Shown here: piece after piece, positions 1,303 to 64,000 of the stretch | Layout of the letters: each line of letters opens with the position of its first letter | Position numbering within the stretch: the first letter of the stretch is position 1 | Source of the DNA: Bacillota bacterium | GTDB taxonomy: Bacteria; Bacillota; Clostridia; Acetivibrionales; Acetivibrionaceae | DNA length: 64,000 nucleotides | NCBI GenBank assembly: GCA_049325575.1 | Contig: JBMOLK010000188.1 | Location: 2,758 to 66,757 of the forward strand | Reading direction: 5' to 3' | Made by a program: the position numbers and the translations under genes | Notes under the pieces: generated by a model | Databases searched by the model: none | The model's input: only the letters and a program-made list of their open reading frames with translations | Told to the model about the DNA's origin: nothing

Positions 1303-1355
1303 GCATTTAAAACAGAAAGAACCCTGTTCATTTTAACATGCCTCGCCTAAAAACC

Positions 1356-1380
1356 TAGTAAACCTATAGGAATTTATAAA
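1356..1380 (+). promoter_or_regulatory. CymR-type operator (AAACCTATAGGAATTT) just upstream of -35 TTGACA (1398-1403)
   Basis: Matches the ATMGGAATTW core of the B. subtilis CymR consensus. The same motif recurs at 1588-1600, 58005-58025, 58512-58524, 60884-60897 and 63318-63330 (minus strand). Confidence 0.55.
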
Positions 1381-1440
1381 AATATTTTTATAAAGTATTG
1401 ACATATTTTTCATGATGCTTTAAAATAATAACATACTAAA

Positions 1441-1457
1441 CATATAAGAATACTGGG
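1441..1457 (+). promoter_or_regulatory. second half-site-like box CATATAAGAATACTGGG downstream of the -10 (TAAAAT 1421-1426)
   Basis: Identical 17-mer at 60966-60983 in the cysK promoter, in the same relative position. Confidence 0.4.
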
Positions 1458-1587
1458 AAATAAAATATTTTATGGGGGAAATAAAAGATACTGTCCAAAA
1501 CCAATTTCCACAAGTCTTAAGAAGTAAAAAGAGCTGTTAATAGGGTTAATAAAAATGAGGCCTAAATTTGCATTAAACCCGAGTAAA

Positions 1588-1600
1588 CCTATAGGAATAC
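1588..1600 (+). promoter_or_regulatory. CymR-type operator copy (CCTATAGGAATAC) immediately before the RBS of the first operon gene
   Basis: Motif repeat; a roadblock position. Confidence 0.45.
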
Positions 1601-1612
1601 TAATAAAGGAGA

Positions 1613-1843
1613 ATGATTATGGCAGAAAAACCTATACGCAGTATAGTAAAGGCCGTTTCGTGGAGAGCAACCGGAACACTTGATACTATTATAATATCTT
1701 TCTTTATCACAGGCGAAATTAAATTTGCTATATCCATCGGATTTATTGAATTAATTACGAAAACAACACTTTACTTTATTCACGAAAGAATTTGGAATCG
1801 TATAAAATTTGGTAAAACTAAGGAACCGGAGTTTCATATTTAG
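1613..1843 (+). CDS. small membrane protein (DUF2061-like), first gene of sulfur operon
   Basis: 76 aa, two hydrophobic helices, a WRxxGxxDT motif and an AAAGGAG RBS. Confidence 0.5.
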   Translation: MIMAEKPIRSIVKAVSWRATGTLDTIIISFFITGEIKFAISIGFIELITKTTLYFIHERIWNRIKFGKTKEPEFHI

Positions 1844-1860
1844 TAAAGGAGGGAAAAAGC

Positions 1861-2580
1861 TTGAGCAAATTGAATGTGGAAGCGTTAAATAATGAGTACA
1901 AAGATAAGTCTGCCGAAGAAACAATGAGATTTATAATTGACAGCCTGGGGTCTAGTAGAGTGATTCTTGCTTCCAGTATGTCCATAGAGGACCAGGTACT
2001 TACCGATATGCTTCTTAGAATCGACCCAAAAGCAAGAATTTTCTTTATTGATACTGGCAGGCATTTTCAGAAGACCTATGACCTTATGGAAGAGACTATG
2101 GGTAGGTATAAGTTTAATTATGAGGTCTATGCACCGGAACGTAAAGAATTGGAGCCGGCTGTTTCAGAATACGGACCAAATTTCTTTTATGAGAGTGTTG
2201 AGCTTAGAAAGAAGTGCTGTGAGATAAGAAAGGTTAACCCCTTAAAAAGAGTTCTAAGTACAGTGGATGCTTGGATTTGCGGACTAAGGAGGGAGCAGTC
2301 CCAAACCCGCCAGGATATAGAAATTTTTGAGTGGGACGAAGCCCATTCCATTTATAAAATAAATCCAATTGCGTTTTGGGATGAAGAACGTGTATGGGGT
2401 TACATAAAAGAGAAGAATGTACCCTACAGCAGCTTGTATAATAATGATTTTAGAAGTATTGGCTGCCAGCCGTGCACCCGGGCGGTAAAGCCTGGTGAGG
2501 ATGTACGCAGCGGAAGATGGTGGTGGGAGGACCCGGATAAAAAGGAATGCGGCCTGCACCTTGGCGCAAGACATTGTTAA
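1861..2580 (+). CDS. cysH: adenylyl-sulfate/phosphoadenylyl-sulfate reductase (thioredoxin-dependent, Fe-S type)
   Basis: PAPS-reductase fold. The CC...CxxC cysteine pairs (KKCCEIR, GCQPCTR) are typical of APS reductases, and there is a C-terminal ECGLH catalytic motif. TTG start with GGAGGG RBS. Confidence 0.85.
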   Translation: MSKLNVEALNNEYKDKSAEETMRFIIDSLGSSRVILASSMSIEDQVLTDMLLRIDPKARIFFIDTGRHFQKTYDLMEETMGRYKFNYEVYAPERKELEPAVSEYGPNFFYESVELRKKCCEIRKVNPLKRVLSTVDAWICGLRREQSQTRQDIEIFEWDEAHSIYKINPIAFWDEERVWGYIKEKNVPYSSLYNNDFRSIGCQPCTRAVKPGEDVRSGRWWWEDPDKKECGLHLGARHC

Positions 2581-2658
2581 ATATGACCTTGATAAAAAGG
2601 ATTACATCCAGTTTGCTAGGAGGTATTCCGCTTACTTAAGTTTAAGGAGGAAGCAAAT

Positions 2659-3540
2659 ATGAATCATTTGGATAAGTTGGAAGCACAGAGTGTTTATATA
2701 TTTAGGGAAGCGTACAGGGAATTTAAAAATATCTGTATGCTGTGGTCCATAGGAAAAGACAGTACAGTGCTTTTATGGCTGGCCAGAAAGGCTTTTTTCG
2801 GCCATGTGCCCATACCCCTTGTGCATATAGATACAAACTATAAAATGCCGGAAATGATCAGATACAGGGATGAACTTGCACTTAAATGGAAATTGACCAT
2901 GATCTATGGCCAAAATAGAGAGGCTCTAGAGAAGAAAAACACGTTCCCTGACGGAAAGATAGACCGTATCAGCTGCTGTCAGGCACTAAAGTCCGAAGCC
3001 CTGAAAAACACCCTGTCAGGGGAATGGGACAGGTATATAATGGATCATAGTACCGGTAAATATGTAACTGATTCAAACAGGGAAAAGTTTACAGGTGTTA
3101 TTGTTGGTGTAAGGGCTGATGAAGAGGGAAGCCGTTCAAAAGAGAGGTACTTCTCCCCCAGGGATAAGGAAAATGACTGGGATGTTGGGGACCAGCCTCC
3201 GGAGTTCTGGAACCAGTTTAAGACGGATTTTGCTCCCGGAACACATATAAGGATTCATCCGCTGCTTGATTGGACTGAGCTTAATATCTGGGAATACATT
3301 GAAAGAGAAAATATACCCATTACTTCGCTCTATTTTGACCAGGGGAACGGCAAGCGCTACAGATCACTTGGGTGCTATCCATGTACTCTCCCGGTTGATT
3401 CAACAGCGAAAAATGTAAGCGAAATAATTGAGGAGTTAAAGAGTGGTAAATTTTCTAAAATCGCAGAAAGGTCTGGCCGTGCACAGGATAAGGATGACGG
3501 CGGAGGACTTGAAACCTTAAGAAGGGGAGGGTATATGTAA
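2659..3540 (+). CDS. cysD: sulfate adenylyltransferase subunit 2
   Basis: [16 protein letters not shown]-loop and typical CysD length. Confidence 0.9.
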
Positions 3541-3541
3541 T

Positions 3542-5338
3542 ATGGAAACCAGAGAACAGATGAACATTGTAATCGTTGGACATGTAGATCACGGTAAAAG
3601 TACTGTCATAGGGAGGCTCCTTGCAGATACCGGCTCTCTTCCCGAGGGTAAGCTTGAATCTGTAAAGAACTACTGTAAAAAGAACTCAAGGCCCTTTGAA
3701 TATGCATTTCTATTGGATGCCTTAAAGGATGAGCAGGCCCAAGGGATTACCATTGATACTGCAAGATGCTTTTTTAAGACGAAAAAACGGGATTACATTA
3801 TTATTGATGCGCCAGGACATATAGAGTTTCTAAAGAACATGGTTACTGGTGCGTCAAGGGCGGAGGCTGCACTTTTGGTCATAGATGCCAAGGAAGGGAT
3901 CAGGGAGAATTCAAAAAGACATGGACATATAGTTTCCATGCTGGGTATCAAGCAGGTGGTTGTGCTTGTTAACAAAATGGACCTGATAGATTTCGACAGG
4001 GAAGTATTTAACAACATCAGTACCGAGTTTACGGCGTTTTTGAACAAGATAAATATCAAGCCCATAAGCTTTATACCCATTAGTGCTTTTAATGGGGACA
4101 ATATTGCGGATAGATCGCCCAATACCTTGTGGTATGATGGACCTACGGTGTTGGAGCAGGTGGATGGTTTTATCAACAGGAAAGAAAATCAGGAGCTTCC
4201 ATTCCGCATGCCTGTACAGGATATCTACAAGTTTACTGAAGAAGGTGATGACAGACGAATTGTAGCAGGTACGGTTTTAAGCGGTACAATCAACACCGGT
4301 GACGAGGTTGTTTTCTTACCTTCCAAAAAGAGAAGTACTGTTAACAGTATTGAAGGATTTAATGTGAAACCAAGAGACACCGCATATGCAGATGAAGCAA
4401 TAGGGGTGACGCTTAAAACCCAAATCTACATTAAACCTGGAGAACTGATGGTTAAAGCCAGTGAAAAACTGCCTGTGGTGAGCTCTCGTTTCAGGGTAAA
4501 TATATTCTGGGTAGGCAAGGCACCCCTTATAAAAAATAAAAACTATAAGCTAAAAATCGGAACAATGAGAATACCGGTAAAGCTTGTTGAAATATTAAAC
4601 ATTATTGATGCTGCGGAGCTTAATATTGATACATTTAAGGACCAGGTAGAGAGGCATGATGTAGCAGAGATTATTTTAGAAACTGCAAAGCCTATAGCCT
4701 TCGATCCGGTTTCCGATATTGAACTGACCGGAAGGTTTGTAATAGTGGATAACTATGAAATATCAGGGGGCGGAATTATATTAGAGGGCGTATCCGATAC
4801 CGACAATACACTGGTAGAACACATAAAGGACAGAGAGTTCCTATGGGAAAAAGGTCTGGTATCATCTGCGCAAAGAGAAGAGGCTTATGGCCATAAGCCT
4901 AAATTTATAGTAATTACATCAGGCAGCGAGGGGAATGAAAAAGCTGTACAGGATATAGGAAAAGAATTGGAAGACAGACTTTTTAAAATGAAATACAAGG
5001 CATACTACCTTGGGGTTTCAAGCTTCCTTCATGGCCTAGCCGCAGACGCGGGTTCCAGTTATGAGGGAAGGGACGAACATATAAGGCAGATTGGAGAACT
5101 GGCAAGGATATTTACCGATTCGGGACAGATTTTCATAACTTCCATATTCAATCTGGATGATTATGAAGCAGGAAAGCTCAAACTTCTGAACCAACCAAAT
5201 GACATATTGGTTGTAAATGTCGGTGAAACACCCTTTGACAGTTTTAAGCCTGATGCAAGTATAAAGATAGATGGGGCTGTGGATGAAGTTTGTGATCTAT
5301 TGAAAAAACATGACATAATACTTGAATATTACCTGTAG
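3542..5338 (+). CDS. cysN: sulfate adenylyltransferase subunit 1 (GTPase) with C-terminal APS-kinase-like domain lacking a canonical P-loop
   Basis: [10 protein letters not shown]1 motif and EF-Tu-like domains. The last ~170 aa resemble CysC, but the P-loop position reads [10 protein letters not shown] instead of GLSGSGKST. Confidence 0.85.
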
Positions 5339-5386
5339 TGAGAAGCCTGGAACTTATAATGTGTTAAATATATAGGAGGTTTTAAA

Positions 5387-5596
5387 ATGAAAGTCGTTGT
5401 AAATGGAAAGGATGTATTACTCGAAAAGGAGATTACAATAAAAGAGCTCTTAATGACTCAGAAGGTTGAAATGCAAAATTATGTCACCGTACAGGTAAAT
5501 GATGAACTGATAGCAAGAGAGGACTTTGAAACCTTGACTGTCAAGGAGGGAGATGTGGTAGAATTCCTTTACTTCATGGGTGGAGGTGCTGTATGA
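5387..5596 (+). CDS. ThiS/MoaD-family sulfur-carrier protein (HcyS/CysO-like) with GG plus 2-residue C-terminal extension
   Basis: 69 aa beta-grasp protein ending FMGGGAV. Translationally coupled to the E1 gene. Confidence 0.7.
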   Translation: MKVVVNGKDVLLEKEITIKELLMTQKVEMQNYVTVQVNDELIAREDFETLTVKEGDVVEFLYFMGGGAV

Positions 5597-6405
5597 ACTT
5601 CACCAATGAGCAGCTGGAGAGGTATTCCAGACACATTATTCTAAAAGAGGTGGGAGCAAAGGGACAAAAAAAGCTTCTTGGGTCAAAGGTTCTGATCGTT
5701 GGAACAGGGGGTCTTGGAGCACCGGCAGCTATGTTCCTGGCGGCTGCGGGAATTGGGACTATAGGTCTTGTAGATTTTGATGCAGTGGAGCTTTCAAACC
5801 TTCAAAGACAGATTATCCACCTTACAAAGGACGTAGGTAAGCCCAAGGTTCTATCGGGAAAGGAAACAATAAATGAAATGAACCCTGATGTGGAGGTTGT
5901 CACATATAAGGAATGGGTAAGCGCGGCAAATATAAAGGATATTATAAATGACAGGGATTATGATTTTATTATAGACGGGACGGATAATTTTCCGGCAAAG
6001 TTCCTGATTAACGATGCTTGTGTTCTTACAAAAAAGCCGTTTTCGCATGCCGGTATCATAAGATTCCAGGGTCAGACAATGACCTATGTACCGGAAAAAG
6101 GCCCCTGCTACAGGTGTATATTTCAAAATCCCCCTCCGCCGGATGCCGTACCTACCTGTAAACAGGCCGGGGTGCTGGGTGTTATGGGGGGCATCATTGG
6201 TACTATCCAGGCAACTGAAGCCATTAAATATGTTCTTGGCGTAGGCGATTTACTGACAGGATATCTTCTGACTTATGATGCGCTGGATATGGATTTTAGA
6301 AAGATTAAGCTGCCGGATAATAAGAACTGCCAGGTTTGTGGAGAAAATGCAACAATAAAGGAGCTTATAGACTATGAACAGGCAGCCTGCGACTTGAAAC
6401 TGTGA
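5593..6405 (+). CDS. ThiF/MoeB-family E1-like sulfur-carrier adenylyltransferase (HcyF/MoeZ-like)
   Basis: GTGGLGAP Rossmann motif, CxxC...C zinc motif, and no rhodanese domain. Confidence 0.8.
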   Translation: MNFTNEQLERYSRHIILKEVGAKGQKKLLGSKVLIVGTGGLGAPAAMFLAAAGIGTIGLVDFDAVELSNLQRQIIHLTKDVGKPKVLSGKETINEMNPDVEVVTYKEWVSAANIKDIINDRDYDFIIDGTDNFPAKFLINDACVLTKKPFSHAGIIRFQGQTMTYVPEKGPCYRCIFQNPPPPDAVPTCKQAGVLGVMGGIIGTIQATEAIKYVLGVGDLLTGYLLTYDALDMDFRKIKLPDNKNCQVCGENATIKELIDYEQAACDLKL

Positions 6406-6456
6406 TAAACGGCGGATCAAAATAATATAAGTGTTTATTTAGGAAGGTGACTAATA

Positions 6457-6873
6457 TTGGTTGTAATAACAAAGCAACAATATAAAGACATATTGGATCA
6501 TTCCCTTGGGGCTTTACCAAATGAAGCCTGCGGGCTTTTGGGCGGCATAGCTGTAAACGATATAAAATATGTGAAAAGGGTATACCTGCTTACCAATATT
6601 GATAATAGCCCCGAGCACTTTTCAATGGACCCTAAGGAGCAGTTTTCGGCGGTAAAGGATATGAGGAGCAACGGGTGGGTGATGCTGGGGAATTTTCACA
6701 GCCATCCTGCCTCACCTTCACGTCCTTCTGAAGAAGACAAAAGGCTGGCATTCGATCCCGGGGTCAGCTACTTGATCATATCGCTGATGGATCAAGAGAA
6801 TATTGTTTTAAAGAGCTTTAGTATAATTAAGAGTGAGGCTTTAGAGGAAGAATTAGTTATAGAAGGAGAATGA
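6457..6873 (+). CDS. JAMM/MPN+ metalloprotease (HcyD/Mec+-like) that would trim the carrier C-terminus
   Basis: HSHPASPSRPSEED JAMM motif (HxHx7Sx2D) with an upstream E. Confidence 0.75.
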   Translation: MVVITKQQYKDILDHSLGALPNEACGLLGGIAVNDIKYVKRVYLLTNIDNSPEHFSMDPKEQFSAVKDMRSNGWVMLGNFHSHPASPSRPSEEDKRLAFDPGVSYLIISLMDQENIVLKSFSIIKSEALEEELVIEGE

Positions 6874-7742
6874 CTATGGCAGGTGTAGATTACAAGGAAC
6901 TTAAAAAAGGCGGTTTCATGCGTCAGGTACAAAAAGACAATTTTGCTCTAAGGCTAAGAATTGTAGGCGGCCAAATTGAGGCAGATCAATTGCTCAAGGT
7001 TTATGAAATCGCAAAGAAGTACGGACAGGGTTATATTCATATGACTGCACGTCAAAGTATTGAAATTCCCCATATTAAGCTTCAGGATATTGAGGCTGTA
7101 AAAAAAGAGCTGCTTGATGCTGGGCTGCAGCCTGGGGCATGCGGCCCGAGGGTAAGGACAATTACTGCATGCCAGGGCAGTACAATTTGTACCAGCGGAT
7201 TGATAGATACAAATTCCCTGGCAAAGGAATTTGACGAAAAATACTATGCCAGGGAATTACCTCATAAGTTTAAGCTTGGTATTACAGGCTGCCGCAACAA
7301 CTGTCTTAAGGCCGAGGAAAATGACCTTGGAGTGAAGGGCGGGATGAAACCGGAATGGATTGAGGGCAACTGTACTTTCTGTGGGCTCTGTGAAGTGGTT
7401 TGCCGTGAGAAGGCCATTATGGTAGATAAGAAAAATCGAAAGCTTGATTTTGATGAAAGCGCCTGCAATTACTGCGGACGCTGCGTAAAATCTTGTCCTG
7501 TGGAAGCCTGGGAAGGTAAAAGCGGGTTTATTATCTATTTCGGTGGGTTGTTTGGCAACAGGATTGCCATTGGAAAGCAGCTTTTTCCTATTATTTTTTC
7601 CAAAGAAGTACTCCACAGGGTAATAGAAACCACACTTGAATTCTTTAAAAAGCATGGAAAACAAAGTGAGCGTTTTGGGAACACCCTTGACCGTGTTGGT
7701 TGGGAGCTTTTTCAAAAAGAGCTGGAGGAGGTTATAAAATGA
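6870..7742 (+). CDS. small assimilatory sulfite reductase (nitrite/sulfite reductase siroheme-4Fe4S domain plus 2x[4Fe-4S] ferredoxin)
   Basis: CxxCxxC...CP ferredoxin motifs (CTFCGLCEVVC, CNYCGRCVKSCP) and a NiR/SiR-type Cys cluster. Confidence 0.65.
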   Translation: MTMAGVDYKELKKGGFMRQVQKDNFALRLRIVGGQIEADQLLKVYEIAKKYGQGYIHMTARQSIEIPHIKLQDIEAVKKELLDAGLQPGACGPRVRTITACQGSTICTSGLIDTNSLAKEFDEKYYARELPHKFKLGITGCRNNCLKAEENDLGVKGGMKPEWIEGNCTFCGLCEVVCREKAIMVDKKNRKLDFDESACNYCGRCVKSCPVEAWEGKSGFIIYFGGLFGNRIAIGKQLFPIIFSKEVLHRVIETTLEFFKKHGKQSERFGNTLDRVGWELFQKELEEVIK

Positions 7743-7984
7743 GTGAAATTAAAGCGGATTCCTTTGTAGATATTACCGATGTGGTTTGTCCCATGACTTT
7801 TGTGAAAGCCAAGGTTGCCATTGAGGAACTGGAGGACGGGCAGGTTCTAGAAGTGAGGATGAACGAGGGAGAGCCAATAATGAACGTGCCTAAAAGCTTT
7901 AAAGAGGAAGGCCACAAGGTTATAAACGTAACAAACAATAATGACGGAACATTTACAGTGTTTGTTGAAAAGGGTGGAATATAA
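7739..7984 (+). CDS. TusA/SirA-like sulfurtransferase
   Basis: DITDVVCPMTF matches the CPxP-type TusA motif. A likely start at 7739 has a GGAGGAGG RBS, whereas the ORF track starts at 7700. Confidence 0.55.
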   Translation: MSEIKADSFVDITDVVCPMTFVKAKVAIEELEDGQVLEVRMNEGEPIMNVPKSFKEEGHKVINVTNNNDGTFTVFVEKGGI

Positions 7985-9214
7985 ATGAGATTTAATACAG
8001 CTCTTTTACACGGTAATTTTACATCTGATGGTAAAACCGGTGCTACAACAACTCCCATATACCAGTCTTCCTCCTTTAAACACGGGACAGCTGAAGAATT
8101 GGAGAATGTTTTCAATGGACGTGAACCGGGCTACATCTACACAAGAATAAATAATCCCTCTATTGAAGCCTTCGAGATGCGCATTGCCTATCTTGAAGGC
8201 GGAGTTGGTGCCGTTGCATGTGCTTCCGGAATGGCGGCTGTAACACTTGCTCTGCTGAATATTTTAAAGAGCGGGGATGAGATTGTATCGGGAAGCGGTA
8301 TTTTCGGGGGCACCCATTCTCTTTTTAAGTGCTTTGAAGACTTCGGCATAACTGCAAGATTTGCCAAAGATAATAGCGTAGGCAGCTTTGAAGAATGCAT
8401 CAATGAGAAAACAAGAGTTATTTTTGTAGAAACCATAGGTAATCCCAGGCTTGATGTACCCGATATCAAAGCTTTGTCGGAGCTGGCGCACAGGTTTGGA
8501 ATTCCGCTTGTAGTAGACAGCACTGTTACAACTCCATACCTTGTAAAGCCTATAAGTCTTGGTGCGGATATTGTAGTTCACTCAACCTCAAAATATATAA
8601 ACGGAAGCGGTAATTCCATTGGAGGAATTATAGTTGACAGCGGAAAATTCAAATGGGATATTAATAAATACCCCTCATTAAAGGCTTATAAGAAATTTGG
8701 AGAGTTTGTATATCTTGCAAAGCTTAGAAAAAGCTTGTTCAAAGATTTTGGAGCATGTATGTCCCCTTTTAATGCATATCTTAGCAGTCTGGGGCTTGAA
8801 ACCCTGGCTTTAAGGATGGACCGGCTTTGCAGCAATGCACTGGGTCTTGCCAAAAGCTTACAGGATAATCCAAAGGTTGTTTCTGTAAATTATCCCGGGC
8901 TTAATGAAAGTGAATATTATACTTTGGCAGATGAGCAGTTTAATGGTAAATTTGGTGCTATTCTTACAATAAGGGTTGGCTCAAAAGAAAATGCCTTTAA
9001 GTTAATAAATTCACTTAAATATGCTGCAAACCTTGCCAATATTGGTGATGTAAGAACATTGGTTATCCATCCGGCTTCAACCATCTACGCAACTAATAAT
9101 ATCGAAGAGAAAGAAATAATGGGGGCCCATGAGGATTTGATAAGGATAAGTGTCGGGCTTGAGGACATTGAAGATATTGTGGAAGACTTCACTCAAGCGT
9201 TGAATATGGTATAA
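7985..9214 (+). CDS. metY: O-acetylhomoserine sulfhydrylase family PLP enzyme
   Basis: Cys/Met-metabolism PLP fold with the PLP-lysine region HSTSKYINGSGNSIGG. Its position follows a thiocarboxylate carrier module. Confidence 0.8.
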   Translation: MRFNTALLHGNFTSDGKTGATTTPIYQSSSFKHGTAEELENVFNGREPGYIYTRINNPSIEAFEMRIAYLEGGVGAVACASGMAAVTLALLNILKSGDEIVSGSGIFGGTHSLFKCFEDFGITARFAKDNSVGSFEECINEKTRVIFVETIGNPRLDVPDIKALSELAHRFGIPLVVDSTVTTPYLVKPISLGADIVVHSTSKYINGSGNSIGGIIVDSGKFKWDINKYPSLKAYKKFGEFVYLAKLRKSLFKDFGACMSPFNAYLSSLGLETLALRMDRLCSNALGLAKSLQDNPKVVSVNYPGLNESEYYTLADEQFNGKFGAILTIRVGSKENAFKLINSLKYAANLANIGDVRTLVIHPASTIYATNNIEEKEIMGAHEDLIRISVGLEDIEDIVEDFTQALNMV

Positions 9215-9232
9215 CTTGATGCGGAGGTAGCT

Positions 9233-10141
9233 TTGACGATGTATGATGTAATAATAGTAGGAAAGGGCCCGGCGGGCTTGTCGGCAGCACTTTATACATT
9301 AAGGGCAAATCTTAGGACACTGGTCATAGGTAAAAGTGACAGTGTTCTTTTAAAGGCTGAAAAAATAGAGAATTATTTCGGGTTTAAGGATACTGTAAGC
9401 GGCAGTGAACTGCTTAATGCAGGAGAACATCAAGCTCTGAAGCTGGGAGCCGATATTGTGGACGAAGAGGTTCTTGGTATAAACCAAAGCGAAGGCTTTG
9501 AAGTAATCACCTCTAAAAACAAGTACGCAGGCATAGCAGTGCTACTGGCAGCAGGTCAGCCCCAAAAGAAACTTAAGATTGAAGGGTTGCAGGAATTAGA
9601 GGGTAGAGGCGTAAGCTACTGTACGACCTGCGATGGTTTTTTCTACAGGGGATTGAAGGTTGGTGTTCTTGGCAACAGTGATTATGCAGTGCATGAAGCA
9701 GAGGAACTCAAGGCTTTTACCAATAATATCACAATATATACAAATGGACGTGATCTTCAGTATAAGGGCGATTATAATGACATTATGAAAAGTTTTAATA
9801 TCGAAAGTAAAAGTATCTTAAAGCTTGAAGGGGATGAATACCTTCAATACATATGCTTTAGTGATGGCTCAAAAGATAGAATAGACGGGCTGTTTATTGC
9901 AAATGAAAGCGCTTCCAGTATTGACTTCGCAAGAAAGCTGGGAGTAATTACAGAAGGTGCATCAATCATTGTTGACAAAGAACAAAAAACCAATGTGGAA
10001 GGGCTGTATGCCGCCGGCGACTGTACAGGAGGCTTTAAGCAGATAGCTACAGCAGTTGGCCAGGGGGCCCTTGCAGCAAGGCATATAATTGAATTTGTAA
10101 GGAATTTAAAAAAGGGCGCTGCATCTGATACTGTAATTTAA
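9233..10141 (+). CDS. trxB: thioredoxin-disulfide reductase-like FAD/NAD(P) oxidoreductase
   Basis: GKGPAGLSAALY FAD motif and CTTCDG redox CxxC. Confidence 0.7.
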   Translation: MTMYDVIIVGKGPAGLSAALYTLRANLRTLVIGKSDSVLLKAEKIENYFGFKDTVSGSELLNAGEHQALKLGADIVDEEVLGINQSEGFEVITSKNKYAGIAVLLAAGQPQKKLKIEGLQELEGRGVSYCTTCDGFFYRGLKVGVLGNSDYAVHEAEELKAFTNNITIYTNGRDLQYKGDYNDIMKSFNIESKSILKLEGDEYLQYICFSDGSKDRIDGLFIANESASSIDFARKLGVITEGASIIVDKEQKTNVEGLYAAGDCTGGFKQIATAVGQGALAARHIIEFVRNLKKGAASDTVI

Positions 10142-57650: not shown

Positions 57651-58004
57651 TTGATAAGTACATTTGTAAGTCCTTATAATATCTGTAGCTGTCAAATCCG
57701 CTGCAGAAGCAGGACAAATTCATTACCGAACTGAAACCAAAACCCCTTTCAGACATTAAATATACCTCAAGTTTGATAATTTGACTTGAATGAACCAAGA
57801 ATTGTGTGTTTATCAAATATACCTCCTAATAAACCCCCTTTTAGCCATTGTATTTAAAACCTCCTTATTAAAATATTTTTATGAAGCGCTTAATCTAATA
57901 ACATAATATTAACAAGGTAAAAAATGTGTTACTCAAATGGAAAAATTTCAAACTTATAAAGATTGACATATATTAATATGATGTAGTAATATAATGGTAT
58001 AAAA

Positions 58005-58025
58005 CATATAGGAATACTAGGAATT
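58005..58025 (+). promoter_or_regulatory. CymR-type operator (CATATAGGAATACTAGGAATT) between promoter (TTGACA 57963-57968) and the Rrf2 gene: autoregulation
   Basis: Tandem ATAGGAAT/CTAGGAAT cores. Confidence 0.5.
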
Positions 58026-58040: not shown

Positions 58041-58488
58041 TATGCGTATTTCAACAAAGGGAAGATATGGTTTAAGGGCGATGTTGGACCTCGCAATCAA
58101 TTCCCATGGTGACCATGTACCGCTAAAAAGCATAGCTGAAAGGCAGGATGTTTCAGAGAGTTATATGGAACAGGTTTTTTCCGCACTTAGAAAAGCTGGA
58201 TTGGTTAAAAGTGTTAAGGGCCCACAGGGGGGATATATCCTGGCAGTCAATCCTTCAAATATAACAATAGGCGATATTTTAAGAGTTTTAGAAGGAACCT
58301 TGTCGGTAGTTGATGAAAACAATGAAGAGGCAGCCAGAAATAACGATGTTGAACGTTGTCTGACTGAAAAAGTTTGGAATTTGATAAATGAAAGTATTAA
58401 CGGTATTGTTGACTCCATAACATTGGAAGATTTGATGCAGGAGTACAAAAAGATGAATAACAATAAAGCTATTATGTATTACATTTAA
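58041..58488 (+). CDS. cymR: Rrf2-family repressor, CymR-like (no IscR-type Cys triad)
   Basis: MRISTKGRYGLRAMLDLA HTH and only one Cys in the C-terminal half. The ORF track starts at 58024; 58041 has a GAGAGGTGG RBS. Confidence 0.65.
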
Positions 58489-58549
58489 CTTTTTTGAGAA
58501 GATCTATAAAACTATAGGAATAATGTTGATTATGGGGGTGGAGCCTTTT

Positions 58550-59704
58550 ATGCCGAACAATTCAAAACACATTGATACAAAACTGGTTCATGGTAGTAAA
58601 GGATTTGATACTGTAACCGGCGCAGTAAGTTTTCCTATTTATCAGAGTGCTACTTTCAGGCATCCGGGTCTCAATCAAACAACCGGATATGATTATTCCA
58701 GGCTTCAGAACCCTACGAGAGAAGAGTTGGAAAATACTGTAGCAGCTCTTGAAAGTGGGTGCTTTGGTTTTGCTTTTACAAGTGGAATGGCTGCAGTTTC
58801 AACAATTCTTTCACTTTTCTCACCGGGTGACCATATAATTGTATCAAACGACCTGTACGGAGGAACTTACAGGCTTTTTGAGGAAATATACAAAAAGTAC
58901 GGATTGGAATTTTCGTATATTGATACATGCTGCATCGAAAAAACTGTAGAAAATATAAGGAGCAATACCAAGGCTGTTTTTATAGAAACTCCTTCAAATC
59001 CCATGATGAAGGTATGTGATATTAAGGCAACTTCAGAGGCTGCAAAATCAAAAGGAATACTGACTATTGTAGATAATACCTTTCTGACTCCATATTTTCA
59101 AAGACCCCTTGAGCTTGGGGCTGACATTGTTGTACACAGCGGAACCAAGTACCTGGGAGGCCATAACGATACTCTTGCAGGCTTTTTGGTTGTAAACGAC
59201 GAAGGTTTGTCAGAGAGTATAAAGCTTGTTCAAAAATCTGCAGGTGCTGTATTACCACCTTTTGACAGCTGGCTAATTCTAAGAGGGATAAAGACTTTGG
59301 GAGTAAGACTTGAAAAGCAGCAAGAAAATGCTATGATAATATCTAAATGGCTTAAGGAAAATAAAAATATAGAGAAGGTTTACTACATTGGTCTTTGTGA
59401 CCATGAGGGCTATGAAATATCCAAAAGACAGGCATCAGGCTTTGGAGCTATGATTTCCTTTACTGTTAAGGACAAGGGAATGGTTCATAGGATTTTAGAC
59501 AGTGTAAAAGTAATAGCTTTTGCAGAGAGCCTTGGCGGAGTAGAGAGTCTTATAACCTATCCTATAGTACAGACTCATTCGGCAATACCGGAAAGTATGA
59601 GGGAGGCTATAGGTGTTAATGAAAGGCTTTTAAGGTTATCTGTAGGTATTGAAGCTGCCGAAGACTTGATTTATGATCTGGAGCAGGCCATGGGGATAGT
59701 ATAG
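58550..59704 (+). CDS. cystathionine gamma-synthase/beta-lyase family PLP enzyme
   Basis: Cys/Met-metabolism PLP fold with SGTKYLGGH PLP-lysine. A CymR-like box at 58512-58524 overlaps the annotated 58523 start, so 58550 (MPNNSKH, with a GGGGGTGGAG RBS) is preferred. Confidence 0.8.
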   Translation: MPNNSKHIDTKLVHGSKGFDTVTGAVSFPIYQSATFRHPGLNQTTGYDYSRLQNPTREELENTVAALESGCFGFAFTSGMAAVSTILSLFSPGDHIIVSNDLYGGTYRLFEEIYKKYGLEFSYIDTCCIEKTVENIRSNTKAVFIETPSNPMMKVCDIKATSEAAKSKGILTIVDNTFLTPYFQRPLELGADIVVHSGTKYLGGHNDTLAGFLVVNDEGLSESIKLVQKSAGAVLPPFDSWLILRGIKTLGVRLEKQQENAMIISKWLKENKNIEKVYYIGLCDHEGYEISKRQASGFGAMISFTVKDKGMVHRILDSVKVIAFAESLGGVESLITYPIVQTHSAIPESMREAIGVNERLLRLSVGIEAAEDLIYDLEQAMGIV

Positions 59705-59718
59705 AGGAGGTGGAATAA

Positions 59719-60858
59719 ATGAAATTCGGAACTAAACTTATCCACAGCAATAACTCAATCGATAAGCATACAGGAGCGTTAAGCATACCTATTTACCAGG
59801 TTTCAACCTATCATCAGTTTGATATTGAAAAAGGAAATGAATTTGACTATTCAAGGTCCGGGAATCCTACCAGGAAAGCATTGGAGGAGACAATAGCACT
59901 ATTGGAAGGCGGAGATAAAGGCTATGCATTTTCATCGGGAATGGCTGCAACTTCTTCAGTATTGTCAATATTTTCCAAAGGGGATCATATATTGGTCTGT
60001 GAAGATGTATATGGTGGAACTTACAGGGTAAGCACAAACTTTTTTCCAAGGTTTGGTCTTGAAATAGAGTTCTTTAATGCTGCTGACACTGATGAATTTA
60101 AAGGGAAGATAAAAAGCAATACCCGGGCAGTGTTTTTGGAGACCCCTTCAAATCCATTAATGAAAATAACTGACCTTAAAGGTATTATCAAAGCTGCAAA
60201 AGAACATGGTTTAACCGTTATAGTTGATAACACCTTTATGTCTCCATATTTGCAAAGACCTATAGAACTCGGGGCAGATATAGTTATACACAGTGCAACG
60301 AAATTTATAGGCGGGCACAGTGATGTTGTGGGCGGACTTGTGGTTGTAAAGGGAGAAGAACTTTCTAAAAAAGTATATTCAATTCAAAACGGATTTGGTG
60401 CAATATTGGGGCCGCAGGACAGTTGGCTCCTGCTTAGGGGAATTAAAACACTAAAGGTAAGGATGGATTTTCAGCAGCAAAATGCTATGAAGCTTGCAAG
60501 CTGGCTTTCAGAAAACAGGAAGGTTTTAAAGGTGTTCTATCCAGGGCTTAACAGCCATGAGGGCAAAGAAGTTCACCTTTCCCAGGCTGATGGGGCGGGT
60601 GCTGTTTTATCGTTTCTGACAAAGGATACCGCTACAGCAAAAGGCTTTATGAGAAGTGTAAAAACAGCTGCTGTTGCTGTAAGTCTTGGAGGAGTAGAGA
60701 CTATTGTTTCATACCCTGTTAAGATGTCCCATGCTGCCATGCCTAAGGATGAAAGAGAAAAACATGGGATTACGGAAAACCTTATAAGGGTTTCAGTTGG
60801 ACTAGAGGAAGTAGATGATCTGATCTATGACTTTGATAAAGCACTTAATGCTGATTAA
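59719..60858 (+). CDS. cystathionine beta-lyase/gamma-lyase family PLP enzyme (paralog of the upstream gene)
   Basis: SATKFIGGH PLP-lysine. Confidence 0.8.
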   Translation: MKFGTKLIHSNNSIDKHTGALSIPIYQVSTYHQFDIEKGNEFDYSRSGNPTRKALEETIALLEGGDKGYAFSSGMAATSSVLSIFSKGDHILVCEDVYGGTYRVSTNFFPRFGLEIEFFNAADTDEFKGKIKSNTRAVFLETPSNPLMKITDLKGIIKAAKEHGLTVIVDNTFMSPYLQRPIELGADIVIHSATKFIGGHSDVVGGLVVVKGEELSKKVYSIQNGFGAILGPQDSWLLLRGIKTLKVRMDFQQQNAMKLASWLSENRKVLKVFYPGLNSHEGKEVHLSQADGAGAVLSFLTKDTATAKGFMRSVKTAAVAVSLGGVETIVSYPVKMSHAAMPKDEREKHGITENLIRVSVGLEEVDDLIYDFDKALNAD

Positions 60859-60883
60859 TTTTTTTAGCATAAATCCTACTAAA

Positions 60884-60983
60884 CCTATAGGAATTTAATA
60901 AAATATTTTTAAAAACCTATTGACAAAAAATGCATAACATATTAAAATTATAATAACCCATAAAACATATAAGAATACTGGGT
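60884..60983 (+). promoter_or_regulatory. duplicated promoter-operator module (CymR box, TTGACA 60920-60925, TAAAAT 60943-60948, second box 60966-60983)
   Basis: Near-identical in layout and sequence to 1356-1457. Confidence 0.55.
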
Positions 60984-61057
60984 ATTAAAAAAATAATTTA
61001 CAGACGCAATTATTGGGTATAATATAACAACAGATATTAAATGAACGGAGTGATTAT

Positions 61058-61993
61058 ATGAGTAAGATTGCAAAAAATCTGACCGATCTTATCGGGAATA
61101 CGCCTCTTTTGGAACTGACAAACTATAACAAAAGTAATGGCATTGAGTCCAGACTTATTGCAAAGCTTGAGTATTTTAATCCTGCGGGAAGTGTAAAGGA
61201 CAGGATAGGATATGCAATGATTAAGGATGCAGAAGAAAAAGGACTTTTAAATAAAGATTCAGTGATTATTGAGCCTACCAGCGGCAATACAGGTATAGCA
61301 CTGGCATTTGTTTCGGCAGCAAAAGGATACAGACTAATACTGACCATGCCGGATACGATGAGTATTGAAAGAAGAAATCTTTTAAAAGCTCTTGGAGCTG
61401 AACTTGTGCTTACACCTGGGAGTGAAGGTATGAAAGGTGCTATTAAAAAAGCTGAAGAGCTTGCAGAAGAGACACCTAATTCATTTGTCCCACAGCAGTT
61501 TAAGAACCCGGCAAATCCACAGATCCACAGGGTAACAACAGCTGAAGAAATCTTTAGAGATACCGATGGAGAGATTGATATATTTGTTGGCGGTGTCGGG
61601 ACAGGTGGTACAATTACTGGAGTAGGTGAAGTACTAAAACAAAAGAAGCCTTCTGTTAAAATCATAGCAGTAGAACCTTTTGATTCACCGGTACTTTCCG
61701 GAGGCAAGGCAGGCCCGCACAAGATACAGGGAATAGGGGCAGGCTTTGTACCCGACATATATAATACAGATGTGGCAGATGAGATTTTTAAGGTAAAGAA
61801 TGAAGATGCCTTCGAGACATCCAGAAAACTTGCAAAAGCTGAAGGGTTGCTTGTCGGTATATCTTCCGGAGCAGCAGCCTTTGCTGCAACCGAAATAGCA
61901 AAAAGACCTGAAAATAAGGGTAAGACAATAGTTGTACTGCTTCCCGATACAGGCGAAAGATATCTATCCACAGTTCTATATCAGGAATCCTAA
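61058..61993 (+). CDS. cysK: cysteine synthase A (O-acetylserine sulfhydrylase)
   Basis: SVKDR PLP-lysine, [12 protein letters not shown], and a [10 protein letters not shown] loop. Confidence 0.9.
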
Positions 61994-62002
61994 CGAACAT
62001 AA

Positions 62003-62098
62003 ACCCCCATTATACTATTCTTCTTTTTATAACAGCGGAGTTTTCTCAAGGGACTGGAGTTTCCGCTGCTATATTGGATAGACCGTAATGGGGGTTAA
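62003..62098 (+). other. nested stem-loop element 3' of cysK
   Basis: AACCCCCATTAT pairs with GTAATGGGGGTT ~75 nt downstream, enclosing ACAGCGGAG...TTCCGCTGCT. Confidence 0.45.
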
Positions 62099-62192
62099 GT
62101 TTATTGGGAATTTGTTATGTTAAAAAGCACTAGTTTACTGTATAAAAAAGCGCTGGAATATGTTAGAATATATTTACTAACTGACTATTGAG

Positions 62193-62903
62193 GTGACTGG
62201 TGTGCTTGAAGTTTATGCAGTGAAAATAAATGATGAAGTTGAAAGAGACAAGTTTGAAAAAGTTTTACATAATTTACCCGAAGACAAAAAAGAAAAAATT
62301 AAAAAGTTCAGAAGATTTGAAGATGGTTTAAGGGCACTTTCTGCTGAAATACTTATAAGGGTTATTATTACTACAAAGCTCGGTATAAAGAATGATGAGA
62401 TAGTGTTTGAGACTGGTCAGCACGGGAAGCCATACCTTACAGGTTTTGATAATTTTCACTTTAATCTTTCACATTCAGGTAAATGGGTAGTATGTGCGGT
62501 AAGTGACCTGCCTGTAGGTATTGATGTTGAGCAAATAAAGGAAATAGAATTAAACATAGCAAACAGGTTTTTTTCACAAATTGAAGCAAAGGATTTGTTT
62601 CACAAAAATGAAAATGAGAGACTGGGATACTTTTTTGATCTTTGGACTCTGAAGGAAAGCTACATAAAAGCAGATGGAAAGGGTCTATCAATGCCGCTGA
62701 ATTCATTCTCCTTTAGAGTAGAGAACGATGAAATATTTTTTGAAACTGACAATGAACTAAAAGACTGTTACTTTAAGCAATATAGCATTGATAGAGATTA
62801 TAAGCTTTCGGTGTGTTCTCAAGTGGCAAAGTTTCCTAAAAGTGTATTGGTAAAAGAATTTGATGATATTTGTGTTGAGTTTTTACGGTACGTAACTTCG
62901 TGA
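62193..62903 (+). CDS. Sfp-type 4'-phosphopantetheinyl transferase
   Basis: GKPYL, FNLSHSG and GIDVE motifs, with a W..KES region. Confidence 0.8.
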   Translation: MTGVLEVYAVKINDEVERDKFEKVLHNLPEDKKEKIKKFRRFEDGLRALSAEILIRVIITTKLGIKNDEIVFETGQHGKPYLTGFDNFHFNLSHSGKWVVCAVSDLPVGIDVEQIKEIELNIANRFFSQIEAKDLFHKNENERLGYFFDLWTLKESYIKADGKGLSMPLNSFSFRVENDEIFFETDNELKDCYFKQYSIDRDYKLSVCSQVAKFPKSVLVKEFDDICVEFLRYVTS

Positions 62904-62974
62904 TTTCAATATTTAAGAAGAACCAAGAAGGAATTTGATCTCTCCATGTCGAATAGATAATTAGTGTAAATCTA

Positions 62975-63202
62975 GTGACTGGAGGGTTTACAATGAGAGT
63001 ATTGAAGTTAAAGGACGGAAGTGAAGTCAAGCTCAATGAAATAAGAAGTTTGCAGAATGGGTGGCAGGAAGCATTGGTTCAGGTCAAGGAAGGAAATAGT
63101 TCTTATTGGGGAAAGGAGAAGAATTATATTATTTGCGGATCTGATTCCCTAAAATACATAATAATAAATGGAGAAAAAGTTTTTATAAACGGCTTTAAGT
63201 AA
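62975..63202 (+). CDS. small hypothetical protein
   Basis: 75-aa ORF with a GGAGGG RBS and a terminator immediately downstream. Confidence 0.4.
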   Translation: MTGGFTMRVLKLKDGSEVKLNEIRSLQNGWQEALVQVKEGNSSYWGKEKNYIICGSDSLKYIIINGEKVFINGFK

Positions 63203-63219
63203 TGGATTTAAATAAAGGA

Positions 63220-63265
63220 CCTTGTTTTGGGATAATAGTTTATACTCAAAACAGGTTTTTTTATT
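63220..63265 (+). terminator. rho-independent terminator
   Basis: TGTTTTG...CAAAACA stem followed by GGTTTTTTTATT. Confidence 0.6.
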
Positions 63266-63317
63266 GTCCTGATTTAGTTAGTGCTGTAACTATATATGTA
63301 AATAGTAACAAATTTTA

Positions 63318-63330
63318 GTATTCCTATAGA
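63318..63330 (-). promoter_or_regulatory. CymR-type operator copy on minus strand (CTATAGGAATACT)
   Basis: The reverse complement of AGTATTCCTATAG matches the other five sites. It lies in an AT-rich non-coding tail. Confidence 0.35.
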
Positions 63331-64000
63331 GTTTAGAGCGTATTTTATTAAGGAAAAATTGAAAAATTGTTGAAACACAAAAAAAAGTAATATATAATAA
63401 AACCAAGTACGAAAAATATTACTGAATTAATGAGCATGAAAATAAAGCTGTTGTATTAATTTGTGATATTTATTGAAGCTCATGCATTTCAGTATAGATC
63501 GCGTCTGTTTTATAGCATTTACTTGGAATTTCCTTTAATTATTCGGCAGGATGTGGCATACTGTATAAAGTAAGAGGGAATTAGTTATAAAAGTGAATTA
63601 TGTCCGTTTTAACAATATAAGTAACTACCTGAACAAAGTATATACATAACAATATACAATTCTTCATAATACGTACTTTCCATAAAAGCATATACATCAA
63701 TCAAAGCTTGCATACTATCAATCTTCATACCAATTTGCTATTCGTCTTGTTTCTATGTAAAAAGAATGCTATTAGTTTGAAAAAACACAGAATAATTTAA
63801 CTGGGTGTGTATACCTGATATGCTGGCTCTTATGTTAAAACTACTGGTTATTGACGGGTTTTAGCAGCCGCATTAGTGTATCATGGCGTTTTTTAATGCC
63901 TATAAAACAATATATATATGCTGTGAGGAATACCGATAGTGATAAAAATAGATATATAAACGTATTTTATAGGATTTAATAGGCTAAAAGGTATTTTCTT

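Follow-up and report, generated by a model that had tools for sequence, protein, structure and literature searches.

The stretch of DNA analyzed here (the window, 64 kb in length) carries genes for sulfur assimilation and cysteine synthesis that are preceded by copies of a common operator box, together with a gene for an Rrf2-family regulator of 148 amino acids that resembles CymR (58042-58488, plus strand). As judged from sequence, these elements very probably form a CymR-type regulon, in which the Rrf2 repressor would control the sulfur genes, its own gene, the transsulfuration genes and cysK through seven boxes, named b1 to b7. The features of the protein, the fit of the motif, the conservation of the boxes across species and the absence of riboswitches support this reading, and the first three, including the positions of the boxes, can be read directly from the sequences. 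A sequence-only reading of the region 1340-1612 had already proposed that a CymR-like Rrf2 protein controls the sulfur genes through operators with a ATAGGAAT core, and on these same grounds the proposal holds. All of the boxes that it placed are present, including one on the minus strand at 63318; its count of six operator copies was too low, as there are eight, the eighth being an orphan beside a scaffoldin promoter. When aligned by their ATAGGAAT core, the boxes share a common pattern of 27-30 nucleotides (nt). They are listed here with their scores and, for three of them, their mismatches at the specified positions of the 27-bp Bacillus subtilis CymR consensus.

1349-1375, plus strand: b1, AAAAACCTAGTAAACCTATAGGAATTT, one mismatch, leave-one-out score 25.6 bits, kept in the relative L091 at 9466.
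1427-1453, plus strand: b2, AATAACATACTAAACATATAAGAATAC, a ATAAGAAT variant, leave-one-out score 26.4 bits.
1574-1600, plus strand: b3, TAAACCCGAGTAAACCTATAGGAATAC, two mismatches, leave-one-out score 26.3 bits, kept in L091 at 9715.
57991-58017, plus strand: b4, leave-one-out score 20.3 bits.
58497-58523, plus strand: b5, the weakest box, self score 22.1 bits, leave-one-out score 8.6 bits.
60870-60896, plus strand: b6, TAAATCCTACTAAACCTATAGGAATTT, no mismatch, leave-one-out score 25.4 bits.
60952-60978, plus strand: b7, a ATAAGAAT variant, leave-one-out score 26.9 bits.
63318-63344, minus strand: b8, the orphan, 19.9 bits, outside the training set.

By target, three of the seven boxes belong to the sulfur operon, one to the Rrf2 gene, one to the gene after it and two to cysK. 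The octamer ATAGGAAT occurs 14 times in the window against 5.3 expected, a count reached by none of 100 shuffles, and the six copies in coding DNA have the octamer alone in common, without the extended motif. With a 30-nt matrix built from b1-b7 of the window only, six boxes score 20-27 bits when left out of training, and the top score in 100 Markov-random 64-kb sequences is 19.6 bits, below all six. Every match of at least 15 bits lies within the 6.3 kb of non-coding DNA in the window, and a matrix scan of its other AT-rich intergenic regions gave no match at this level. The sequence-only reading had named an equal frequency of the motif in AT-rich intergenic DNA as the result that would speak against it; this is not what is seen within this one window. 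The operator can be described as a 27-bp asymmetric pseudo-palindrome with the consensus aAAAaCntAttAAACaTATAGGAATanTA. Across 36 sites of the comparison, the consensus reads aAAAaCntAttAAACaTATAGGAATanTAg with a CC-N13-GG spacing, its left half (AAAaC) being the weaker one and its right half-site almost without variation. For CymR of B. subtilis, the reported consensus is TAAWNCN2ANTWNAN3ATMGGAATTW, with which the 36-site consensus agrees wherever a base is specified, apart from the final TT, where it has A/T.

In a comparative scan with the window-only matrix at a threshold of at least 18 bits, 14 clostridial loci of Rrf2 genes with one or two cysteines (148 kb) gave 14 matches, each of which lies either some 45-80 nt ahead of cymR or in the stretch from cymR to cysK. 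Six Firmicute loci of multi-Cys Rrf2 paralogues (64 kb) gave no match at this threshold, and 60 proteobacterial IscR loci (657 kb) gave one. A box ATAAAACATATAGGAATACT(A/G)GG, near-identical to b4, is found about 45 nt before cymR and past the -10 hexamer in L083, L085, L087 and L090; L003 has a one-base variant of this box, ATATTGGAAT, and most other CymR-like loci are also boxed there. A box right after cymR is kept in L004, L005, L009, L010, L013, L015, L016 and L099. In the nearest relatives, whose regulators are 68-70% identical to that of the window, cymR and cysK form an operon, and in most relatives cymR is co-operonic with or adjacent to cysK.

Conservation extends to the sulfur operon. 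L091, in which CysH is 86% identical, has a syntenic sulfur operon with three boxes at the same places, while the leader between the boxes has diverged. The ATAAGAAT variant of the b2 type stands at the same position in L091, L095 and L102. Operons for sulfur assimilation or transport have boxes before them in L091, L093, L095, L100 and L102; among these, L093, Pseudobacteroides cellulosolvens (L095) and Acetivibrio alkalicellulosi (L102) have boxed operons for sulfate/sulfonate transporters and assimilation.

The regulator clearly belongs to the Rrf2 family (TIGR00738, 141.8 bits against a cutoff of 73.3; PF02082). Its best specific NCBIfam model is that of CymR (NF047409, 151.3 bits), with the IscR models slightly lower. 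It contains a single cysteine, Cys105, aligned with the third cluster ligand of IscR (the equivalent of Cys104); the other two Cys ligands, Cys92 and Cys98 in IscR, are gone, and the position of the His ligand, His107, is occupied by Glu. Its CymR-like relatives likewise carry one or two cysteines. The C-terminus reads ...KAIMYYI, and an M[YF][YF]I terminus is present in all 19 of the clostridial CymR-like relatives with one or two cysteines and missing in five of six multi-Cys relatives. In Staphylococcus aureus, CysK takes up the CymR tail ...GYMFYI in its active site with a dissociation constant of 25 nM, for which the five terminal residues are enough (bioRxiv 10.1101/2024.09.19.614015). 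Around the regulator and behind the boxes of the window there are no isc or suf genes. Every clostridial CymR-like protein examined (relatives L003-L017 and L085-L099) has an invariant cysteine motif, E-x-C-[IL]-x-x-x-[VI]-W, in a place that is deleted in Bacillales CymR. This cysteine may serve as a second sensing site, based on its thiol, or simply be a relic.

Known RNA regulators were also sought. At the gathering score, Rfam gave no match in the whole 64-kb window, and thus no S-box or T-box, while permissive scans of the leaders (E<=1) gave nothing relevant, only spurious eukaryotic snoRNA matches. The 197-nt leader of the sulfur operon folds no better than its shuffles (z = +0.44). An attenuator, a riboswitch and a leader peptide were sought in the 185-nt leader and rejected: the leader shows neither an Rfam match nor excess folding energy, and its small open reading frame at 1473 is not conserved in L091. 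The sequence-only reading was therefore correct in finding no S-box or T-box leader; from this it concluded that the repressor alone appears to control sulfate assimilation, which agrees with the lack of known RNA leaders, but sole control is more than sequence evidence can establish.

The genes at the boxes and next to them are as follows.

85-1302: GGDEF/EAL gene, upstream neighbor of the region 1340-1612.
1619-10141, plus strand: eleven-gene sulfur operon, downstream neighbor of the same region.
Sulfur operon, genes 1-4: DUF2061 membrane protein, CysH, CysD, CysN.
Sulfur operon, genes 5-8: ThiS-like carrier, ThiF/MoeB-like adenylyltransferase, JAMM protease, small ferredoxin-type sulfite reductase.
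Sulfur operon, genes 9-11: TusA-like protein, O-acetylhomoserine sulfhydrylase, thioredoxin-reductase-like (TrxR-like) protein.
58550-59704, plus strand: MccB/MetI-like transsulfuration enzyme of the PF01053 family.
59719-60858, plus strand: MetC-like transsulfuration enzyme of the PF01053 family.
61058-61993, plus strand: cysK, O-acetylserine sulfhydrylase A (TIGR01139, 474 bits against a cutoff of 351).
62193-62903: Sfp-type phosphopantetheinyl transferase (PPTase), adjoining cysK.

The boxes are placed with regard to three promoters, two of which are accompanied by an A/T tract.

1378-1394, plus strand: UP-element-like A/T tract, 3 nt upstream of the -35 hexamer, one mismatch to AAAWWTWTTTTNNAAAA.
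1398-1426, plus strand: sulfur-operon promoter, TTGACA-17-TAAAAT, sigma-A type, 11 of 12 consensus positions.
57963-57992, plus strand: promoter of the Rrf2 (cymR-like) gene, TTGACA-18-TAATAT.
60899-60915, plus strand: UP-element-like A/T tract, 4 nt upstream of the -35 hexamer, one mismatch to AAAWWTWTTTTNNAAAA.
60920-60948, plus strand: cysK promoter, TTGACA-17-TAAAAT.

The Escherichia coli UP-element consensus is AAAWWTWTTTTNNAAAA (PMC2425493), and the two tracts are the only places in the window with at most one mismatch to it. Each lies in the interval between operator and hexamer, which measures 22 nt on the side of b1 and 23 nt on the side of b6. The centers of b1 and b6 are at about -71 and -72 from the predicted transcript starts of the sulfur operon and cysK. 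On the other side of the promoters, b2 abuts the -10 hexamer and covers the predicted transcription start of the sulfur operon, and b7 begins 3 nt past the -10 hexamer of cysK. Each module thus has the sequence characteristics of a very strong promoter clamped by an operator near -71 and another over the transcription start. The two operators are 78 bp apart in one module (b1-b2) and 82 bp apart in the other (b6-b7), and are not in helical phase. The hexamers and spacing of the sulfur promoter are identical in L091, L095, L100 and L102.

The remaining boxes occupy other positions. Box b3 lies about 120 nt past b2 and about 150 nt past the promoter, and its end is a few bases short of the first gene's ribosome-binding site; a second promoter was sought between b2 and b3, and nothing promoter-like was found there. 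From the operator at the start site to the one at the ribosome-binding site, the center-to-center distance is 147 bp in the window (1440 to 1587) and 167 bp in L091 (9561 to 9728), or 14.0 and 15.9 helical turns, which in these two cases is compatible with looping on the same face. Box b4 overlaps the end of the -10 hexamer of the cymR-like gene, implying that this gene is autoregulated. Box b5 follows the cymR stop codon by 9 nt and precedes the first transsulfuration gene. The sequence-only reading described b5 as overlapping the start of that gene, which is the case only if ATG 58523 or 58532 is used; ATG 58550 is the likelier start, with a good Shine-Dalgarno sequence (GGGGGTGGAG) and a position that fits where the family models start aligning, so that b5 would be an intergenic internal operator.

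The modules before the sulfur operon and before cysK resemble each other closely. Over about 110-120 bp they can be aligned, their elements following in the same order and their spacings agreeing within 1-4 nt, at 84% mean column identity in the pairwise alignment and 76% strict identity over 1349-1456. Their identity by element is given below.

Upstream operator: 89%.
UP-like tract: 74% (p about 0.002 against shuffles).
-35 and -10 hexamers: 100%.
17-nt promoter spacer: 41% (7/17; p = 0.14, chance level).
Downstream operator: 73%.

From the likeness of the modules, the sequence-only reading suggested a promoter duplication. As a recent event in this genome, it would mean that the sulfur promoter was copied to cysK when metB-metC-cysK was inserted after cymR. 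The common order, the near-equal spacings, the overall identity of 76-84% and the interval from the first box to the -35 hexamer, more alike than shuffles, would all fit such an event. In addition, in the nearest relatives cysK either has no promoter of its own, lying 20 nt after cymR, or is missing along with the whole block, so that a cysK promoter at this position is derived. In the closest relative (L097/L098, from the same sample as L091, SRR16297623), the PPTase gene comes immediately after cymR and is itself followed by the TTGAAACACA... promoter, the L097 regions 4314-4455 and 5146-5160 being the counterparts of 58489-62100 and 62910-63350 in the window. According to this order, the metB-metC-promoter-cysK block and a block of orf75 plus b8 are insertions or deletions between the lineages. 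The cysK gene of this relative (SRR16297623) could not be singled out, as CysK is 85-89% identical across many taxa.

A recent copying is nevertheless unlikely. The interval between box and -35 hexamer is a near-consensus UP element in both modules, whereas the 17-nt spacer, the only stretch of the module without an assigned function, agrees at no more than chance level. Moreover, the cysK module is no closer to the sulfur promoter of the window (76%) than to that of another organism, L091 (76%), these two orthologous promoters being 83% alike. The same cassette occurs before a stand-alone cysK with two operators in L100, and with one operator before a single cysK-transporter-ThiS-ThiF-JAMM-Sir-TusA operon in A. 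alkalicellulosi (L102), an arrangement that points to a way in which a single operon might have split. Counted from the -35 hexamer on, pairs across genes and genomes are all 64-85% identical without grouping by gene or genome. As the similarity is confined to functional elements and the cassette is found in at least three other genomes, an old shared design is indicated, and any duplication would predate the lineages. What stands of the suggested duplication is the shared order and spacing, and a common origin, if real, would be ancient. It is plausible that the two modules descend from one old family of CymR-clamped promoters. The spacers of six such promoters are on average about 9/17 alike, against about 6/17 to the spacer of a cymR promoter, and four of the six carry TGCAT(A/G)A at an identical place in the spacer, a hint of old common ancestry. 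A scan of JGI metagenome contigs for the whole-module pattern TAGGAATTT-N19-26-TTGACA-N34-46-ATAAGAATACT gave no match.

Several observations weigh against the CymR-type assignment of the regulator and its boxes. At 151.3 bits, the regulator scores below the curated CymR equivalog cutoff of 195 bits, and it is therefore filed as CymR-like, in a clostridial clade, and not as an equivalog of Bacillales CymR. It is equidistant from B. subtilis CymR (104 bits) and E. coli IscR (106 bits); among solved structures, it comes closest to the Rrf2 regulator of Thermincola potens (4cic, 133 bits), which we take to be an IscR. An M[YF]YI tail is also carried by 4cic, as MYYI, and by the multi-Cys, IscR-like clostridial protein of L012, so that the tail is not exclusive to CymR; the same distribution suggests that the CysK-docking tail may predate the loss of the iron-sulfur (Fe-S) site. 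Among the boxes, the leave-one-out score of b5 is low, and for b8 there is no plausible target and no minus-strand gene downstream. The fit of the boxes is to the B. subtilis consensus as reported, part of which was quoted in the sequence-only reading. Finally, for this organism the whole assignment derives from sequence. Overall similarity does not separate CymR from IscR for this regulator, and the assignment rests instead on the lost Fe-S site, the tail and the operator.

The orphan b8 has further peculiarities. It has one extra base between TAAAC and TATAGGAAT, is missing from L097, and carries a G to T change in its core in a 99.8%-identical strain. It is found on the other strand, some 25 nt before the -35 hexamer of a plus-strand promoter, TTGAAA-17-TATAAT (63370-63398), whose L097 orthologue is followed by a leader of about 750 nt and then by a scaffoldin gene with CBM3 and cohesin domains.

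The similarity to IscR leads to a different explanation, in which the boxes are sites of the IscR type (type 2-like), bound by a cluster-less IscR derivative or by a separate IscR encoded elsewhere in the genome, and the regulon reports Fe-S status instead of the status of cysteine and O-acetylserine. The closeness to 4cic, the equal distance from E. coli IscR and B. subtilis CymR, and the alignment of the only cysteine with the third cluster ligand would all be in keeping with this. IscR type 2 sites have the spacing CC-N13-GG, which is also that of the boxes. Furthermore, the motifs of IscR and CymR have been reported to be similar (PMC3828012). Even so, this explanation is very unlikely. 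With two of the three Cys ligands and the His ligand missing, the regulator cannot bind a cluster in the manner of IscR. Its targets are all genes of sulfur assimilation or of cysteine and homocysteine synthesis, with no isc or suf genes among them, and the multi-Cys Rrf2 paralogues of related Firmicutes have no box at their own loci (64 kb). The CysK-binding tail and the linkage to cysK, on the other hand, point to the sensing of CysK and O-acetylserine. That the boxes are a small dispersed repeat or a chance motif without regulatory function, as an AT-rich window with 70% AT in its intergenic DNA and an orphan b8 might suggest, is scarcely credible, given that their scores are far above random expectation, that their position and orientation relative to promoters and start codons are strict, that they are kept at orthologous positions in many species while the flanks diverge, and that they co-occur with one regulator subclass only.

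In the CymR-type regulon as proposed, the 148-residue Rrf2 protein would bind the 27-bp operator as a dimer. The two strong UP-element promoters would drive the operon leading from sulfate to homocysteine and the cysK gene, and with operators at about -71 and over the start, bound repressor would exclude or trap RNA polymerase. Box b3 would probably act as a roadblock or as a looping or cooperative partner. Through b4, the regulator would repress its own promoter, and b5, as a roadblock or cooperative partner, would gate read-through from cymR into the pair of transsulfuration genes. If the regulon works as in Bacillus and Staphylococcus, the ...IMYYI tail would enter the active site of CysK and thereby stabilize DNA binding. 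When sulfide or cysteine is scarce, accumulating O-acetylserine would compete for the CysK site, dissolve the complex and derepress all units. The mechanism involving CymR, CysK and O-acetylserine comes from work in B. subtilis and S. aureus (PMC3828012; PMC2940859; bioRxiv 10.1101/2024.09.19.614015). For the window, we infer DNA binding, this signal, and the roadblock and looping roles; a complex of the regulator with CysK is indicated indirectly, by the tail and by the linkage to cysK. The product of cysK would then be a regulated target as well as co-repressor and sensor.

A broader conjecture, which we put forward tentatively and regard as rather doubtful, joins several of these elements. 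The promoter module would be an ancient portable cassette, copied repeatedly before various sulfur operons of the Acetivibrionales (cysK, sulfate reduction, sulfate/sulfonate transporters). The clostridial CymR-like clade would descend from a Gram-positive IscR that lost its cluster, with the single cysteine, a relic of the third Fe-S ligand, possibly adding a thiol, persulfide or redox input to the sensing of CysK and O-acetylserine, and the outcome would be a two-signal sensor over a thiocarboxylate homocysteine route, replacing S-box control.

The sulfur operon itself has features of interest. The ThiS-like carrier ends in ...GGGAV, that is, Gly-Gly followed by two extra residues, and belongs to a gene set at 5387-9214 (with 1861-5338). 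The set of ThiS, ThiF, JAMM, sulfite reductase, TusA and O-acetylhomoserine sulfhydrylase presumably matches the protein-thiocarboxylate homocysteine route of Wolinella (HcyS/HcyF/HcyD/MetY). This set is found again in the relative L091, in Thermoanaerobacterium (L096) and in A. alkalicellulosi (L102). In CysN (3542-5338), the C-terminal third has a weak match to APS (adenosine 5'-phosphosulfate) kinase (56.9 bits, residues 429-536; PF01583 marked weak), and CysH passes the cutoff of the model for thioredoxin-dependent APS reductase. It is therefore possible that the pathway runs via APS and not via PAPS (3'-phosphoadenosine 5'-phosphosulfate), with a degenerate kinase domain in CysN.

Between the two ends of the window lies a hybrid cluster of nonribosomal peptide synthetase and polyketide synthase genes (14654-37703), which comprises C-A-T modules, a KS-DH-KR-ACP module and a fusion of a beta-lactamase fold with an ABC domain. 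The Sfp-type PPTase gene beside cysK is 25 kb from this cluster. The exact CymR-like protein was found only in an NCBI metagenome-assembled genome named 'Bacillota bacterium' and in two Logan assemblies, and its relatives are from Acetivibrio, Ruminiclostridium, Herbivorax and Pseudobacteroides. Dockerin and scaffoldin genes in the window and adjoining it indicate a cellulosome producer, and the host is concluded to be an uncultured, Acetivibrionales-like cellulolytic clostridium.

A clostridial CymR regulon that includes cysK and sulfate assimilation has already been predicted for Clostridium acetobutylicum (PMC3828012), and the window is an ordinary further example that leaves the understanding of CymR-type regulation unchanged. 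In the literature searched, no paper was found that links CymR to the cellulolytic Acetivibrionales. What is added here is modest: the layout with three operators, the UP-element promoter, the thiocarboxylate homocysteine route without an S-box, and the invariant cysteine of the clade. The result is a testable map of a regulon for an uncultured cellulolytic clostridium and its relatives, with an operator consensus, a promoter architecture, autoregulation and internal operators. Sulfur supply affects the growth and redox balance of the cellulolytic clostridia used in biomass conversion. In addition, the control of homocysteine synthesis, commonly riboswitch-based in Firmicutes, would here fall to a protein repressor together with that of cysteine synthesis, and the strong promoter with its two clamping operators might be put to use as an expression cassette that responds to sulfur and can be tightly repressed.

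Among known systems, the CymR proteins of B. subtilis and S. aureus share with the window regulator the Rrf2 fold without an Fe-S site, the M(F/Y)YI tail that inserts into CysK (S. aureus), the positions of the 27-bp operator including ...ATAGGAAT (by the reported consensus), and targets among cysK and the genes for methionine-cysteine interconversion. Unlike Bacillales CymR, the window protein falls below the equivalog cutoff (151 against 195 bits) and has an invariant single cysteine in a loop that is deleted in Bacillales. The sulfate assimilation and methionine genes of B. subtilis are under other regulators and S-boxes, whereas the regulon of the window covers the whole sulfate-reduction pathway and the ThiS/ThiF/JAMM carrier route to homocysteine. 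The window regulator also differs from these CymR proteins in being autoregulated, as predicted from b4, and its gene is co-operonic with cysK in most clostridia. IscR, as represented by E. coli and 4cic, resembles the window regulator in family, in the CC-N13-GG spacing and in the MYYI tail (4cic), with the highest overall similarity to 4cic; it differs in the two of three Cys ligands and the His ligand that are gone from the window regulator, in the Fe-S assembly genes that are absent from the targets, and in that the multi-Cys paralogues lack the box.

In other clostridia, the same classes of genes (cysK, transsulfuration, and methionine and homocysteine synthesis) are under S-box and cysteine or methionine T-box control, as in C. 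perfringens and in the ubiG operon of C. acetobutylicum (PMC2940859). In the window, by contrast, there is no such RNA element and control appears to be protein-based. A further parallel is the predicted CymR regulon of C. acetobutylicum, in which CAC2236 stands beside cysK (CAC2235) and the sulfate-assimilation operon CAC0102-0110 is included (Wang et al., 2013; PMC3828012). As in the window, an Rrf2 gene is found beside cysK, and boxes precede cysK, the regulator and the sulfate-assimilation operon. The window differs in that its cysK is parted from cymR by two transsulfuration genes and has a promoter and two operators of its own, and in that its sulfur operon, in an Acetivibrionales-like lineage, has three operators and includes thiocarboxylate-carrier genes.

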